Shown here piece by piece: positions 39,791 to 47,449 of a DNA stretch of 64,000 bases. The notes beneath the pieces were generated by a model. That model was not told where the DNA came from. It was given only the letters and a program-made list of their open reading frames with translations, and did no database searches. Location: positions 1-64,000 of IMG/VR virus record IMGVR_UViG_3300032241_002679; one strand, given 5' to 3'. Origin of the DNA: a virus. The number at the start of each line of letters is the position of its first letter. Position 1 is the stretch's first letter. The position numbers were made by a program, and so were the translations under genes.

Positions 39791-40360
39791 ATGGAAATAC
39801 CACAACCAGTAGATGTAAATAGACTAAAAGCAATTTTGGGCGCATCTAAAAAAATAATGAATAAAGTTGAGACTGGCGATTTTGAAACTGGACACATTGA
39901 TGCAAGAGCTTTAACAGAAGAAGGTGTTGCTGAATTAAAAGCAGAGGGTGTTACAAGACCAAAATCACAAATGAATCATGTAGGTTATACCGCTGAGAGT
40001 GTAAAAAATTCTAAACTACCAGAAGCTATAAAAAAAGTTATGCTTGAAAACCCAATACCACAAATGGTTAATCCAAATCATACATTTACAATAGATGATG
40101 TTTCTGAATTAGCAGATAAACCAATGGGATTACCAAGAATTCCAAAAACATCTAAAAAACAAATAGTCGAATCGTATAATTCTAATTCAAATTATATTAC
40201 GGTTAGTAAAGAAGAATTAAATGAAATGGTTAGCGATATGGTTAATGAAAAATTATTAGAATTTTTTGTGCAAAATCATAACAAAAGAATTACTGAAGAC
40301 GCAGTTAAAAAAACAATTAACATGCTAATTAAAGAAGGTAAACTTAAAAAAACTGTTTAA
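39791..40360 (+). CDS. Hypothetical protein
   Basis: NSKLPEAIKKVMLENPI; followed by a terminator. Confidence 0.65.
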   Translation: MEIPQPVDVNRLKAILGASKKIMNKVETGDFETGHIDARALTEEGVAELKAEGVTRPKSQMNHVGYTAESVKNSKLPEAIKKVMLENPIPQMVNPNHTFTIDDVSELADKPMGLPRIPKTSKKQIVESYNSNSNYITVSKEELNEMVSDMVNEKLLEFFVQNHNKRITEDAVKKTINMLIKEGKLKKTV

Positions 40361-40386
40361 TTTTTTTTAAAAATATTTTAAAAATT

Positions 40387-40409
40387 GGGGCTTATAAAAG
40401 CCCCCTTTT
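40387..40409 (+). terminator. Intrinsic terminator
   Basis: GGGGCTT-ATAA-AAGCCCC followed by CTTTT. Confidence 0.75.
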
Positions 40410-40458
40410 ATTTACATTAATATTTTAATTATTATATTAATTTTATAATTTTTATTTA

Positions 40459-41376
40459 ATGGGGAATAAAATTATTTTAGATGATAAATTGATTCAACTA
40501 ATTAAAGACCAATATATTTCTGGAATTGGCTCAACAATAATTAGTAAAAACTTAAATATCCCAAAACATACAATTTTAAAAATATTAAATAAATTAAAAA
40601 TAATAAGGAATAGACGTATATCTAAAGAATTTTATTCTAATTTTTGGGAAGAAGAAAACATGTGGTGTGGTAATTATGTATGTAAATCCTGCAACGAAAA
40701 AATAAAATTTTGTGTTAATGAAAAATCGTTATTAAATAGAAATTTAAAAAGAAAAAACATTTGTAAAAAATGTTCATTAAAAAAACAAATCGGTAGCAGT
40801 AATTCATTTTATGGAAAAAAACATATGGAAAAAACCAAAAAACAAATATCAAATAAAAAAATTGGTATTTGTACAAGTAACCATAGTAAAAAGCCTGAAT
40901 ATAGGAAACTATATAGCAAGTTGGCAAAAGAAAGGTGGGCTAGCGGTAAAATGGAATCAACCAGAATCAAATTAAGTAACTTGATGAAATCAAGGATAAT
41001 GAATGGTAAATTAAAGGGTTATATTAGATCTAAAGCCGAACTTAAAATAGTTGATGAAATTCAAAATCTAGGAATAATCGTTATAGAAAATTTTAAAATA
41101 AAAACAAAAGTATTTGATATCTATATACCAAAATTTAATTTACTGATAGAATACAATGGAGATTATTGGCATTGTAACCCTAAAAAATATAGTCCTAATT
41201 ATTTTAATAGTAAAAAAAATAAAACAGCGGAAGAAATTTGGAACTATGATAAGAATAAACTTGACTTAGCAAAAAAGTATAATTATACTTGCGAAACAAT
41301 TTGGGAATCGGATTATAAAAAAGATCCCGAAATAATAAAAAATATAATAAAAAAATATGACACAAAACATGATTAA
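40459..41376 (+). mobile_element. Free-standing endonuclease (HTH, CxxC pairs, NUMOD3, Vsr/DUF559-like catalytic domain)
   Basis: CKSC/CKKC; NSFYGKKHMEKTKKQIS; FDIYIPKFNLLIEYNGDYWH; TIWESD. Confidence 0.8.
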
Positions 41377-43759
41377 TCTCACCCCAGTTCGTCAAAAAAT
41401 TAAGCTATTAGTGGTAGCTAGTGACAGAACTGGGGTGAGCTGACTAAGCTTTTTTAGATCAACAAAACCACATATTCATTTAGAAAAAAATTATCCTGAT
41501 GAATTTCAAATTGATATAGATTATGAACCACATTTGGATAATGATGAATGGTTAAAACAATATGATATTATTCACTATCACAGAACACTGGGTCCGTATG
41601 AACAAATGGAAAGTTTAATTAAAAGATTAGATAATTTAGGTATTGTTAGTATTATGGATTTGGATGATTATTGGTCACCTGGCCCTCATCACCCAGCTTA
41701 TCTCTTAATAAAGAACACTGGTTTAGACAAAATGATATTAAACAATATTAAACTTGCAAAAAATGTAACTACTACTACAAAAATTTTTGCTGAAGAAATT
41801 GCTAAACATAATAAAAATGTATTTGTATTGCCAAATGCAATTGATCCAACCGAAAAACAATTTACATATAATCCAGAAAAAAATGACCGAATTAGAATTG
41901 GTTGGTTAGGTGGTAGTTGTATGACACCAGATACAGAAATATTGACAAATGAAGGGTGGAAACGATTTGATAAGCTAAATCAAACCGAAGAAGTAGCGAC
42001 ACTAAACCCAGAAACAAATGAAATTGAATACAATAAACCAACTGGCTATATTTGTGAACCATTTGATGGACAATTAAATTGTGCTAAAAACGAGTTAGTT
42101 GAGTACGAAGTAACACCAAACCATAACATGTATGTATCAGAAGCTAAAAATCTAACACATAAAAAATTAGATTTACGGTTGATACAATCCGAAAAAATAC
42201 ATGGCAAAAATTTTCATGTTAAGATAGATGGTATTTGGAAAGGCGAAGAAATGAAATACTTTGTTTTACCAAAATTAAATTTTGAGACTGAGCAAGAAGA
42301 ATCATATATTGATTCTTTAATAGCTAAGAAATATAAACCAACTAATTATTTAGTTGATAAATATGGTTCGGATCTACATTTAGATATGGATAAATGGTTA
42401 AAGTTTTTTGGTTTTTGGATGGCTGAAGGGTGGACTAGTAAATCAAGAGGTTTATATCAAGTTGGTGTTGCACAAACTAAGGATAATAATTATTTATCTG
42501 AAATGTTTGATACTTTAACAGAATTAGGGTTTAACCCAAAATACACCAAAGATAAAAAACAACTTAGAGTTTTTGATAAACAACTATGGGATTATTTATC
42601 TTATTTTGGCCAAGCGTTTGAAAAATTTATACCCAACGATATTTTATCATTATCTAGTCGTCAATTGGAAATATTTTTAGAGTGGTTCATAAAAGGTGAC
42701 GGAACGGTAGAATCTAATAAATACCAAAGAAAAAGAGCCTTTACTAGTTCTAAAAAATTAGCGGATAATTTACAAGAATTAGCGTTAAAAATTGGTATAA
42801 CAGCCACTATAACAAATAGGGGAAAAAGAACATCCAGTATTAAAGGAAGACCGATTATAAATCAATACGATAGTCTTCAAATTAATTTTGGAAAAAAACC
42901 AAGTATTAGTAAACACAATAAATCAACACCATTAGTAAAATCTTCAGAACAATATAATAGATATTATAAAGGTAATGTATATTGTGTTGAGGTTCAGAAT
43001 CATATTATTTATGTTAGAAGAAACGGTAAAGCAATGTGGGTTGGTAATAGTCACCTTAAAGATCTAGAAGTTTTAAAAGGCGTAGCTGGTAGAGTAGCTA
43101 GTGAAGGATTATTGGATAAAATACAATTTGTTGTATGTGGTTTTGACCTAAGAGGAACCATGACAATAATTGATGAAAAGACAGGAGAACAAAAACAAAG
43201 ACCAATTCTACCACGTGAAAGTGTATGGTTTGAGTATGAGAAAATATTCACTGATGATTATAATATAGTTAGTCCTGAATATAAAGAATTTTTATTGAAA
43301 TTTAAAAATGAGGAGTATCCAAATTTAATGAATGAACCGTATAGAAGAGTATGGACAAAACCAATAAGTACATATGCCACTAATTACAATTTGTTTGATA
43401 TATCATTAGCACCAATTGAAGAAAACATATTTAATAGAGTTAAAAGTCAGCTTAAAGTTATTGAATCTGGATTTCATAAAAAAGCATTAATAGCACAGGA
43501 ATATGGTCCTTATCAAATAGATATTAAGAATGCGTATCAATTTGGTGGTGGTTGGGATGAAAATGGAAATGGAATTTTAATAAATAGCAATAAAAACCAT
43601 AAAGATTGGTCTAAATTTATTATTAAACTAATTAAACAGCCAGAATTAATTAAACAATTGGGCGAAAATTTATATAATACGGTAAAAAATACATATTCAT
43701 TAGATAAGGTTACTGAAGACCGAAGAAATTTATATCATAAACTAATAGGCAATAAATAA
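41357..43759 (+). CDS. GT-B (GT4-like) glycosyltransferase with an intein; the true 5' end lies upstream of an in-frame TGA (41441-41443)
   Basis: MTQNMINLTPVRQKIKLLVVASDRTGVS*LSFFRSTKPH is in frame with the tracked ORF at 41534; DLDDYW, VLPNAID, GWLGGS|SHLKD, DISLAP..FN..KSQLKVIE motifs. Confidence 0.8.
41378..41450 (+). other. Candidate ribosomal hop/bypass element: 17-bp stem-loop plus AGC-TGA-CTA-AGC
   Basis: ctcaccccagttcgtca (41378-41394) pairs with tgac(a)gaactggggtgag (41422-41439); matched Ser codons 41438-40 and 41447-49 flank the stop. Confidence 0.55.
41918..43048 (+). mobile_element. Intein (377 aa) with LAGLIDADG/DOD endonuclease, inside the glycosyltransferase
   Basis: C1 CMTPDT; block B TPNH; FFGFWMAEG and FLEWFIKGDG; VYCVEV...WVGN followed by +1 Ser. 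Confidence 0.9.
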
Positions 43760-44961: not shown

Positions 44962-45729
44962 ATGAAATTAGATTTTAACGATTTATTAATTGTTCCACAA
45001 AAAATCACTTCAATAACCTCTAGATCAATGGTTAATCCATTTGCTAAAGATTATCTTCCATTAATGACTGCTCCAATGGATACTGTTATTGATAATAATA
45101 ATAGTGATGTATTTTTTAAAAACAAAATTAGAGTTTGTTTTCCCAGAGGAATTTATGCTGAAAGAGGGTTTAAGTCTTTTTCTATCTCAGAAATGGCTGA
45201 ATTAGTTCAACAAAATAATATAAAGCCTGATAACAGTTACTTAATTGATATAGCAAATGGTCATATGAAAAATGTTTTAGAATTGGTTAAAACAATAAAA
45301 GAAAAATATCCTAATTTAAAGTTAATGGTCGGCAACATTGCTAATCCTGAAACATTTGCTTTATTATCTGATGCTGGTGCTAATTATATTAGAGTTGGTA
45401 TAGGCAATGGCGGAGGATGCATTTTAGAAAATTCTATTGTTTCAACTAAGTCGGGGGATAAACCAATTCAAAATGTCGAAATAGGCGATTATGTTTTAAC
45501 CCACACTGGTGAATATAAAGAAGTAATTAGCACAATTGCATATCCCAGTCGTGAAGAACTTATAAAAATTAACAACACGATATCAACTAAAACACACGAA
45601 TTTTATGTATTAAATAAGATTTATAAAGATTTAGTTGACGATGATAATATTCATAATTATGCTGAATGGATTAAAGCCGAAAATCTAACTAACGAATTTT
45701 TTTTATTGGAATATGATGAGAATGATTAA
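44962..45729 (+). CDS. IMPDH/GMP-reductase family N-extein fused to a split N-intein (45418-45726, 103 aa)
   Basis: LDFNDLLIVP, TAPMDTV, IDIANGH, RVGIGNGGG|CILENS; block B TKTHEF; acidic end EYDEND. Confidence 0.9.
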   Translation: MKLDFNDLLIVPQKITSITSRSMVNPFAKDYLPLMTAPMDTVIDNNNSDVFFKNKIRVCFPRGIYAERGFKSFSISEMAELVQQNNIKPDNSYLIDIANGHMKNVLELVKTIKEKYPNLKLMVGNIANPETFALLSDAGANYIRVGIGNGGGCILENSIVSTKSGDKPIQNVEIGDYVLTHTGEYKEVISTIAYPSREELIKINNTISTKTHEFYVLNKIYKDLVDDDNIHNYAEWIKAENLTNEFFLLEYDEND

Positions 45730-45753
45730 CCTTTTAATAGGTTCGACATATTT

Positions 45754-46800
45754 ATGATAAAACCCATTATGTTGAAGAAACTTTTTAATAAAAAAAATAT
45801 TTGTCTAGAATGCCAGGAATTTTTTAATAAAGATACCGACAATAAAAATTTTTTATCTTTTACTAGTCATTTAAAAACACACCATGGTATGTCTAATGAG
45901 GAATATTATCGTAAATATTATCTAAAAAATAGTGAGGGTCTTTGCGCTTGCGGATGCGGTAATAAAACCACATTTCATAAAGGTAAATATTTAAAGTATT
46001 TTTCTGACCATAAAAATTATATTACTCAGACAGATTTAACACTCTTAAAAATTAAAAAATCTAAAGAAAAATATAATAAAATTTCTAGTTTATTAAAAAA
46101 AACAGGTATAACATTTGATGAATTAAAAAAAACATATGATGAATTTATTAATTTAGAAAAACCAATTAGTGTTTTATCGAAAGATTTATCAATTGATTTT
46201 AGAACATTAAAGGATTATTGGTTAAAAGTTGGTTTAATTGAAAATAAAGAAATTTTTAAACGGACATGCTTAAAATCTCAAACTAAATGGCTAAATAAAC
46301 CATTGGTTCCAAATGATAATATTGTTGAAAATTTACGGTCTAAATTATTTTTAATTAAAGAACTTTTAAATAGGTCGGATAAAGTAACTTTTAACCAAAT
46401 AATTACTGTTATAGATTTAAAACTTAATAAAAATTATCTTGGTTGGTTTCTAAAGGAAAATCTGACATCTACAGAGTTAAAAAAGGTTAAATTCATTAAA
46501 CACAGTCAAATTGAAATTGATTTTCTTAATTTATTAAAATTTTATTTCGATAAATCGGTTTTAGGTTCTTTTGAGCTTGATGGTAAAATTTTTGATTACA
46601 AATTGGGTAAAAATATTTTAATTGAATTAGATGGCGAATATTGGCATTCATCCGATGAAACTAAAATCAATGATAAATTAAAAAATGAAATAGCTAAGTC
46701 TAATGGATTTACTCTAATTAGAGTTAATGATAAACATGTTAAATCATTAGATTTTTTAAATAATTTAAAAAATATATATGAAAAAATTAAAAAAATATAA
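45754..46800 (+). mobile_element. Free-standing Vsr/DUF559-like endonuclease between the split-intein halves
   Basis: CLEC...HLKTHH, CACGCG, FDYKLGKNILIELDGEYWHS; start may be ATG 45769. Confidence 0.8.
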
Positions 46801-47449
46801 ATTAAAAGAAATTGAAACTATTGAGTTTATAAATACTGAGTCATATAATATGTTACATGATATAACAGTTGATAAAAATCATTCCTATCAAGTTAACAAT
46901 AATATTGTTCATAATTGCCTCACAACTCAAAATACGGGTGTTGGATATCCAATGGCATCCCTAATTAAAGAATGTTATGAGGTATCACTGTCATTAAAGA
47001 ATCCAGCTTATATTGTTGCTGATGGTGGAATGCAGACATATAGTGATGTTATAAAAGCTTTAGCATTAGGCGCTGATTATGTAATGCTTGGTAGCATTTT
47101 TAATAAAGCACTTGAATCTGCTGGTTCTAATTATTTATGGAAAAAAATAAGAGTTCCACAAATAATTGCTAATAAAGCTTATAAATTCGGTGTTCCTGTT
47201 TATAAGAAGTTTCGTGGAATGAGTACTAAAGAAGTTCAAAAGAAATGGGGTTCTAAGAATATTAAAACTAGCGAAGGTGTAATACGATATAGAAAAGTGG
47301 AGTACACTCTTGGTCAATGGTGTGAAAATTTTGAACATTATTTACGCTCAGCTATGAGCTATACAAATGCTAAAAATTTAAAAGAATTTATTGGCCAAGT
47401 AGAATTGATTGAGATAACAAATAATGCGTATAAAAGATTTAATAAATGA
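46778..47449 (+). CDS. Split C-intein (46778-46915, 46 aa) fused to the IMPDH/GMP-reductase C-extein
   Basis: MKKLKKYKLK...LHDITVDKNHSYQVNNNIVHN|CLTTQNTGVG; ADGG, KALALGADYVMLG, FRGMS, SEG, LRSAMSY. Confidence 0.9.
   Translation: MKKLKKYKLKEIETIEFINTESYNMLHDITVDKNHSYQVNNNIVHNCLTTQNTGVGYPMASLIKECYEVSLSLKNPAYIVADGGMQTYSDVIKALALGADYVMLGSIFNKALESAGSNYLWKKIRVPQIIANKAYKFGVPVYKKFRGMSTKEVQKKWGSKNIKTSEGVIRYRKVEYTLGQWCENFEHYLRSAMSYTNAKNLKEFIGQVELIEITNNAYKRFNK

Follow-up and report, generated by a model that had tools for sequence, protein, structure and literature searches.

We analysed a 64,000-nucleotide (nt) stretch of viral DNA (the window; positions 1 to 64,000 of IMG/VR virus record IMGVR_UViG_3300032241_002679, 28% G+C), which is part of a 142-kb viral contig (G000) estimated to be ~40% complete. 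The subject of the analysis is a glycosyltransferase (GT) gene whose 5' end is broken by an in-frame stop codon and overlaps the gene of a homing endonuclease. A first-pass annotation, made from the letters of the window alone, had interpreted this region as an ultra-short element by which ribosomes hop over the stop. The main features are listed below; those around the stop are named after the proposed hop, and the relatives mentioned are 69 distinct interrupted sequences described in the next section.

40459-41376, + strand: endonuclease open reading frame (ORF), 305 amino acids (aa), a free-standing homing-endonuclease gene
41357-41440, + strand: GT ORF1, cassette-borne, with a new start, an N-terminal extension and a recoded K-I-K-L-L-V-V-A-S-D-R-T-G-V-S
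41378-41439, + strand: long hairpin, 5' arm in the N-terminal extension, 3' arm on the D-R-T-G-V-(S) codons
41438-41440, + strand: take-off codon AGC (Ser); only GGT, GGC, AGC or AGT in 69/69 relatives
41441-41446, + strand: gap, predicted to be untranslated, TGA (41441-41443) plus CTA (41444-41446); stop directly after take-off in 69/69
41447-41449, + strand: landing codon AGC, the same as the take-off codon, followed by the resume codon TTT (41450-41452)
41450-43759, + strand: GT ORF2, the remainder of the GT-B (GT4-like) glycosyltransferase, with an intein inside

The GT frame has ATG codons at 41357 and 41369; the former lies 20 nt inside the 3' end of the endonuclease ORF and lines up with the start codon of the relatives in the alignment. 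ORF1 encodes M-T-Q-N-M-I-N-L-T-P-V-R-Q-K-I-K-L-L-V-V-A-S-D-R-T-G-V-S (28 codons, then the stop), and the frame after the gap begins with FFRSTKPH and stays open for 771 codons, to 43759. The first-pass annotation had placed the opening of this frame at the same two ATG codons over the endonuclease 3' end, had given it ~770 codons and had read AGC-TGA-CTA-AGC at the stop (41438-41449); all of this agrees with our reading of the locus.

The broken codon and the hairpin ahead of it

The GT matches the PHROG 7162 glycosyltransferase profile with E = 1.5e-40, and Pfam GT4 only with E = 0.018. The predicted model of an uninterrupted homologue (predicted local distance difference test, pLDDT, 91) has a GT-B fold with two Rossmann-like domains, and its closest folds are GlgM, MshA, BshA, PimA and PglA, which are of the GT4 type. 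Beta-strand 1 of the model comprises residues 6-11 and helix 1 starts from residue 18; the hop site falls where the loop that follows beta-strand 1 ends and helix 1 has its N-cap, and this loop has one and the same length in all 61 homologues.

IMG/VR was searched with the N-extein (the part of the GT between resume codon and intein), and the 80 loci obtained form an unbiased sample. Most of them are uninterrupted and read M-K-K-L-K-V-L-V-V-P-S-D-R-T-G-V-[GS]-[YFK]-[YF]-R-S, and in total 61 distinct uninterrupted 5' ends were gathered. The window carries 9 extra nt in comparison, since these 61 homologues run SDRTGV[GS]-[YFK][YF]RS and deleting the 9 nt restores exactly that; the clean GT-B N-terminus which the first-pass annotation expected from this removal is the one found in nature. 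Homologues that start downstream of the stop or have three extra residues at this point, for which it had advised a check, are absent among the uninterrupted ones. The uninterrupted genes encode the hop-site residue also by GGA, GGG, TCA and TCT, none of which occurs at take-off. No near-identical phage records were found.

Nine distinct loci of the unbiased sample are interrupted, all at the same codon. A search with the endonuclease and a DNA pattern search (hairpin plus stop) raised the set to 69 distinct interrupted sequences, to which the following counts refer. The break is at the same codon in 69/69, and the landing codon directly precedes the conserved resume codon. The take-off codons are GGT (43), GGC (18), AGC (6) and AGT (2); the stop that follows is TAA in 41 and TGA in 28, and TAG in none; the landing codons are GGT (35), GGC (13), GGA (13), AGC (7) and AGT (1). 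The first two bases of the take-off codon and of the landing codon coincide in 67/69, and their identity co-varies, as the first-pass annotation predicted: a Ser take-off is matched by a Ser landing in 7 of 8 cases, a Gly take-off by a Gly landing in 60 of 61. Differences in the third base are limited to the pairing range of one tRNA (AGC/AGT; GGT/GGC/GGA).

Concerning the displacement, +6 nt is the most frequent (43 sequences), followed by +8 (9), +11 (6), +7 (3), +5 (2), +9 (2) and +10 (1), with one sequence each at +13, +14 and +15; the gaps thus span 2-12 nt. All three frame relations are present, which rules out simple readthrough or a single frameshift; readthrough would fail to repair two of them, and the protein of every variant is restored only by the P-site tRNA leaving GGY/AGY and re-pairing at the next cognate triplet. 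Between stop and landing codon, A is the most frequent base (52), followed by T (20), C (12) and G (1 of 85); the gaps being nearly without G, no earlier landing triplet is available. The downstream ORFs are intact in 69/69 (~380-420 aa, or ~770 aa with the intein). In the interrupted loci the ratio of non-synonymous to synonymous substitution rates (dN/dS) is ~0.19 over the 12 codons before take-off and ~0.23 over the 35 codons after the resume codon; judged by these ratios, both coding pieces are under purifying selection.

In the window, the stem ahead of the take-off codon pairs 41378-41394 with 41422-41439 (17 bp, one bulge) and carries an apical hairpin (41403-41409 with 41413-41419). 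No fold has a lower energy (-33.6 kcal/mol, z = -4.7), and 0/200 dinucleotide shuffles fold equally well, so that the GC-rich 17-bp stem with its bulge and nested hairpin, described at first pass, holds. The 3' end of the hairpin extends into the take-off codon; across the family it lies 0-3 nt from take-off, and the same architecture is found in 38/38 relatives folded. The 75 nt that end with the take-off codon have a minimum free energy of -29.4±2.8 kcal/mol in interrupted vs -7.8±3.2 kcal/mol in uninterrupted sequences.

Compensatory changes in the stem, also anticipated by the first-pass annotation, are found. A plain MAFFT alignment mis-registers the 5' arm between clades; hence a covariance model was built from 13 sequences and 32 were aligned with it. 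In this alignment 81% of the cells are paired, vs 30-46% when the partner is slid, and double-sided changes occur at 10 pairs (57 cells), a level matched by 0/500 shuffles. Some fall on third positions in the 3' arm where the change is synonymous (Thr and Val codons), and these vary together with the 5' arm. The 3' arm uses GC-rich synonyms that are rare in the genome (GGG in 33/38 interrupted vs 9/61 uninterrupted sequences; also GAC and CGT), which indicates that the coding sequence was recoded for the stem with the protein kept. The conserved residues of the extension (T-P-V-G-R type) are those encoded by the 5' arm.

The small AGCT-GACTA-AGCT hairpin over the stop, also noted at first pass, can form in the window and in other Ser-type relatives and is impossible in the Gly-type majority (GGT TAA GGT). 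We therefore regard it as a side effect of the AGC/AGC repeat; it is not conserved. We also considered the GGGG of the 3' arm as an internal Shine-Dalgarno (SD) sequence of the prfB/RF2 kind, to which we give little weight in view of the lack of SD enrichment in the ORFs of the phage: in the 142-kb contig, SD-like tetramers are found upstream of 3% of long ORFs vs 6% of the background, and starts lie in A-rich tracts, which suggests a host with SD-independent initiation. The GGGG covaries with its CCCC partner, and in one clade GGAG covaries with CTCC. A scan of bacterial and archaeal genomes for the hairpin-plus-stop pattern gave 52 matches, all of them chance matches in high-GC sequence and none with a GT homologue, and offered no clue to the host.

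The endonuclease and its mobile cassette

The endonuclease contains an N-terminal helix-turn-helix, a Cys4 region, a NUMOD3-like motif and a C-terminal Vsr/I-Bth0305I-like PD-(D/E)XK domain. It matches PHROG 3339 (homing endonuclease, E = 3e-10) and, weakly, the Pfam domain MTES_1575. In the predicted model (pLDDT 85), the C-terminal domain is matched by Foldseek to 1cw0 (E = 2e-3), 1vsr and 3r3p; the match to I-Bth0305I (3r3p) has a TM-score of 0.77 on the target, a root-mean-square deviation of 3.0 and 21% identity, and the E-values are marginal. Residues D220, E231, D235 and H238 (IEYNGDYWH), candidates for the catalytic motif of the family, are invariant in 29 endonuclease homologues, and homologues at 41-60% identity are found at this position in relatives.

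Of the 9 distinct interrupted loci in the unbiased sample, 5 have an endonuclease homologue upstream; of the ~54 uninterrupted ones, none has. Counting all distinct loci, 31 have both hop and nuclease, 9 the hop without the nuclease, 11 a plain gene with the nuclease and 48 a plain gene without it. The co-occurrence of insert, 5' arm and endonuclease, which the first-pass annotation expected, is thus found in the sample, but at least nine distinct hop loci are free of the nuclease and the link is not strict. Having lost the nuclease, these loci have no homing advantage; they keep the hairpin, the gap and intact ORFs. The hop state is patchy on the N-extein tree, on which ~20 changes are needed.

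Several pairs of loci differ by the presence or absence of the element. L005 and L006 are 96-98% identical apart from ~1 kb; further pairs are L013/L016, which differ only by a small 5' replacement, and L128/L094. L006 keeps the original 5' end, M-K-K-L-K-V-L-V-V-P-S-D-R-T-G-V-S-Y-F, upstream of the nuclease, broken two codons past the hop site. The gene's earlier 5' end survives as such a relic (M..KVLVVPSDRTGV[GS]Y..) in L105 (=L006), L091 (=L007), L083 (=L030) and L088 (=L087). All four relics lie ~0.9-1.05 kb upstream of the hop site and break off 1-2 codons past the hop codon, so that their ends mark the point of insertion or cleavage; the window itself carries no relic.

Based on the near-identical pairs and the relics, the element consists of a short spacer, the nuclease gene, a new ATG, the extension with the 5' arm, the recoded N-terminal copy, the stop with the gap, and the landing codon. 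The new ATG lies in the conserved K-K-Y-D end of the nuclease. By this comparison the region is an intron-less homing cassette of ~1 kb, made up of an endonuclease and a replacement GT 5' end. The 9 extra nt seen at first pass beside the endonuclease are real, but they are not the whole insert: in place of its entire original 5' end, the GT gene now has the start codon of the cassette, an extension at the N-terminus and ~17 codons in a recoded copy.

Other combinations of these parts are also found. L051 (2920-3010) and L038 (2926-3010) have an uninterrupted GT with the extension and 5' arm of the cassette (covariance-model scores 59.6 and 41 bits, respectively), no gap, no endonuclease and a relaxed 3' arm; they look like natural revertants or gene-conversion products. 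Distant relatives of the nuclease (33-40% identity) precede uninterrupted GT genes whose N-termini are differently recoded and have no hairpin; such recoding is a putative alternative escape from self-cleavage. In L091, L083, L088 and L096 the endonuclease frames are truncated (168-255 aa from the first Met), and tblastn similarity spans most of the 305 aa; the nuclease appears to be decaying there while hairpin and gap are intact.

Other copies of the endonuclease family are found in a different setting. In L134, L141, L142, L145, L146, L155, L157 and others, the endonuclease homologue is followed by an ORF which starts with ..W.IETD.GW...I.. motifs and is intein (Hint)-like; this points to genes fractured by split inteins. 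The copies of this group (L134-L161) showed no hop-like gap. The window holds a second Vsr-like endonuclease ORF at 45754-46800, which is 21% identical to the first and has weak DUF559 and MTES_1575 matches; the ORFs that flank it (region 44962-47449) read as a gene fractured by a split intein. If this reading holds, the same nuclease family would use another rescue strategy 4 kb away.

Three further features lie around the cassette or within the GT gene:

40387-40404, unstranded: terminator-like hairpin, closes the upstream gene 39791-40360 and is the left border of the cassette-rebuilt region
40411-40438, + strand: promoter-like site TTTACA-16 nt-TATATT ahead of the endonuclease, weak (13 such sites found vs 12 expected by chance)
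41918-43048, + strand: LAGLIDADG intein, 377 aa, in the GWLGGS/SHL motif of the GT gene

The terminator-like hairpin has a 7-bp GC-rich stem followed by a T run, and a similar hairpin lies immediately upstream of the GT promoter and start in uninterrupted relatives. There is no terminator between endonuclease and GT, and the two are therefore probably co-transcribed. GT ORFs of ~770 aa are also present in several relatives (e.g. L006, L007, L030, L087), and other relatives have no intein. With the intein and the cassette in one gene, the GT gene was hit by two independent selfish elements.

Explanations of the gap

On the proposed hop, the ribosome would start at ATG 41357 and move on to AGC 41438, where the P site would hold peptidyl-tRNA-Ser and the A site UGA, and termination would be slow enough for the anticodon to release the take-off codon. 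At this point the 3' arm of the hairpin would occupy the E site and the exit channel, with the 5' arm already outside. The mRNA would then slide by 9 nt, and the 17-bp hairpin would re-zip behind the ribosome as its 3' arm leaves the mRNA exit channel, pulling the mRNA out and the ribosome forward; such a role has been proposed for the 5' stem-loop of T4 gene 60 and for upstream hairpins that favour forward movement (PMC5009743; bioRxiv 10.1101/2024.12.09.627546). The same tRNA would re-pair at AGC 41447 and decoding would resume at UUU, giving the junction ...TGVS-FFR... of the uninterrupted homologues. In this way the replacement 5' end would restore the conserved N-terminus (beta-strand 1 and the SDRTGV[GS] loop), and the stop and the few bases after it would alter the DNA across the presumed cleavage site with the protein unchanged.

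It is probable, in our judgement, that a programmed short translational hop of this kind lets the cassette break the target site of its nuclease without killing the gene. There are precedents: T4 gene 60/MobA joins a homing endonuclease with a bypass, and engineered stop-hops and forward-driving 5' stem-loops are documented (bioRxiv 10.1101/2022.08.31.505936; 10.1101/2024.12.09.627546; PMC5009743). The interpretation offered at first pass is supported, with the corrections given above, by its comparative predictions, nearly all of which were borne out; from these comparisons of sequences we infer the hop and its efficiency, the hairpin as its driver and the protection from the endonuclease.

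A number of points weigh against the hop. The fully unbiased subset of interrupted loci consists of 9 distinct sequences; the DNA pattern used to enlarge it demanded a hairpin, a GGY/AGY codon and a stop, so that only landing codon, gap length and ORF integrity are unbiased in the loci it added. The covariance-model alignment is fitted to the structure and for this reason favours it. Descent could account for part of the match between take-off and landing codons, beside selection for tRNA re-pairing, because the GT residue encoded is the same in both copies. The rule has two exceptions, L086 (AGT..GGC) and L277 (GGC..AGC). The latter (metagenome contig Ga0098052_1007709) reads GGC TGATG AGC TAC, with an ATG in the resume frame overlapping the stop (UGAUG), and from this arrangement the hop may have been converted there into a stop-start coupled two-piece gene. 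A protein search found the cassette in no cultured phage, and only GTs of <40% identity. Unassisted stop-hops in the engineered E. coli genes of Weiss et al. in 1987 reportedly occurred at ~1% or less, and a high efficiency here is an assumption.

Among the other explanations, the one that survives best, though we think it unlikely, is that the gap is a costly scar which is tolerated: translation would mostly terminate, the GT would be made only in traces, by spontaneous hopping or readthrough, or not at all, and homing would outweigh the cost. The mobility of the cassette and its patchy occurrence on the GT tree (the ~20 state changes) fit this, as do the several decaying endonuclease copies and the suggestion that the element of the T4 system may be mildly deleterious (bioRxiv 10.1101/2022.08.31.505936). 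A scar would not lead one to expect that the N-terminal copy in the cassette keeps its amino acids through many synonymous changes (dN/dS 0.19), or that take-off, stop, landing and hairpin persist in cassettes with nucleases of only 41-60% identity. Retention of the gap and of intact ORFs in the at least nine distinct nuclease-free loci is likewise unexpected if the product is unimportant.

The gene may instead yield two polypeptides, an N-terminal peptide of 25-31 aa and the rest, made by termination and reinitiation and assembled non-covalently, like the split Topo2L and NrdA after MobA and MobE. Functional split genes are known for these related elements (bioRxiv 10.1101/2022.08.31.505936), and suitable codons exist in single cases, namely the resume-frame ATG of L277 (TGATG) directly before the landing codon and a TTG at that place in L088 and L315. 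No ATG, GTG or TTG lies between take-off and resume codon in 66/69 relatives, the peptide would need to supply the central strand of a Rossmann-like domain, and the matched codons and G-free gaps would be left unexplained; we regard this arrangement as quite improbable for the family.

Slightly less credible still is the removal of the extra bases from the mRNA by a hairpin-guided cleavage-ligation or editing activity. A strong conserved hairpin does end exactly at the gap; but such an activity needs neither an in-frame stop nor a duplicated codon, both of which are nearly invariant, the 2-12 nt gaps have no conserved sequence beyond the stop, and 40300-41800 gives no match to an Rfam family, intron or ribozyme at E ≤ 1.

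A mixture of conventional recoding events, in which the stop of the +6, +9 and +15 forms is read through and the remaining forms undergo +1 or -1 frameshifting, has an equally slim chance in our estimate. Shifty stops promote +1 frameshifting, a hairpin upstream can tip the balance towards forward shifts (PMC5009743), and the gap of the window is in frame (+9). After a 1-nt slip, however, the P-site tRNA could not re-pair (AGC to GCU, GGU to GUU), and readthrough would add 2-5 residues to the loop whose length is invariant in the 61 homologues. TAA, the least leaky stop, is also the commonest (41/69), and three mechanisms would be needed where one suffices.

That the stop is an assembly or sequencing error, or a TGA decoded as an amino acid in this phage, has nothing for it beyond the presence of the in-frame TGA and is effectively refuted: the identical design recurs in dozens of independent metagenome assemblies, which rules out the error, as the first-pass annotation had argued of random error, and many variants have TAA or are out of frame. 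Suppression or recoding of TGA is ruled out by the same TAA variants and by the 142-kb contig, in which TGA is an ordinary stop that ends 23/120 long ORFs (TAA 91, TGA 23, TAG 6) and no tRNA genes were found, so that a changed genetic code is rejected.

Known bypass systems and the meaning of the family

The bypass of T4 gene 60 is essentially the sole well-studied natural case in bacteria and phages, and its relatives are all in the same topoisomerase gene; a survey of gene 60 found bypass only in Topo2L and termed it unique (bioRxiv 10.1101/2022.08.31.505936). We compared the GT family with this system as described by Manning & Atkins (bioRxiv 10.1101/2022.08.31.505936), by Wills et al. (bioRxiv 10.1101/2024.12.09.627546) and in PMC5462505. 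In both, a free-standing homing endonuclease is inserted in a conserved ORF, and the cassette supplies a new start together with an extension of the N-terminus and a substitute copy of the codons that it displaced. The stop directly follows a Gly take-off codon (in the GT family also Ser), the landing codon is matched, a 5' stem-loop lies upstream of take-off, and the bypass persists where the endonuclease has decayed or disappeared.

The differences are as follows. The target is a GT-B glycosyltransferase instead of Topo2L, and the sequence shows no homology to the gene 60 cassette. MobA is an HNH nuclease, whereas that of the GT cassette is a PD-(D/E)XK Vsr-like one, although some gene 60-type elements carry VSR-like nucleases. 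The gap of T4 gene 60 is 50 nt and that of its shortest relative 20 nt; the 2-12 nt gaps of the GT family leave no room for a take-off/A-site stem-loop or a mini-SD. The mini-SD that lies ~6 nt 5' of the T4 landing codon is absent in the GT family (1 G/85 gap bases; no SD usage by the phage). The T4 nascent signal KKYK is ~25-30 residues from the P site; the GT family has no KKYK-like signal, its whole chain at take-off being 25-31 residues long, and the nascent peptide may still have some effect. The 5' hairpin of the GT family covaries, is much stronger than that of T4, lies 0-3 nt from take-off vs 9 nt, and is the sole conserved putative stimulator. Compared in this way, the GT family follows the logic of the MobA/gene 60 family and is not a member of it.

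The engineered stop-hops in E. coli (Weiss et al. 1987) have matched codons flanking a stop, with 9 nt giving one amino acid, and +5 hops were obtained too (PMC5009743). The +6 class of the GT family (GGT TAA GGT) has exactly that form; the engineered cases are synthetic, whereas the GT family is natural and conserved and has a dedicated hairpin and a mobile-element context. In 2016 no natural in-frame stop-hop was known to reviewers (PMC5009743), and our literature search, in which not all journals were covered, found no published description of the GT hop family. The byps of Magnusiomyces mitochondria (27-55 nt, 81 sites) require, as summarised in that review, relaxed decoding in mitochondria and an A-site codon that goes unused (Lang 2014; Nosek 2015, via PMC5009743), and in this summary they are, unlike the GT gaps, not tied to an endonuclease or a 5' hairpin.

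Concerning the nuclease, its domain is predicted to have the same fold as the I-Bth0305I/Vsr-like homing endonucleases (PMC2677866; PDB 3r3p). A fractured gene with a split intein is the arrangement first described for the I-Bth0305I-type family (PMC2677866); in contrast to those genes, the GT host gene would be rescued by a recoded 5' end and the proposed hop, and not by an intron or a split intein.

A wider claim is that the GT loci are a natural and evolutionarily independent family of very short bypasses (5-15 nt), which have no take-off stem-loop, mini-SD or long nascent-peptide signal, whose sole dedicated stimulator is a strong exit-side hairpin that pushes the ribosome forward, and which represent a general way for homing-endonuclease cassettes to break their own target; here we see the case for and against as evenly balanced. 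If it is true, the 69 natural variants would be a ready-made mutational series for the minimal requirements of bypass. In gene calling, such genes come out split or truncated. Should the hop be real, a minimal set of signals (matched codons, a stop and an upstream hairpin) could program bypass, and the natural gaps of 2-12 nt would allow a direct test of how re-folding of mRNA at the exit channel drives the ribosome. It would also mean that the strategy of combining an endonuclease with a bypass has a second, independent origin.

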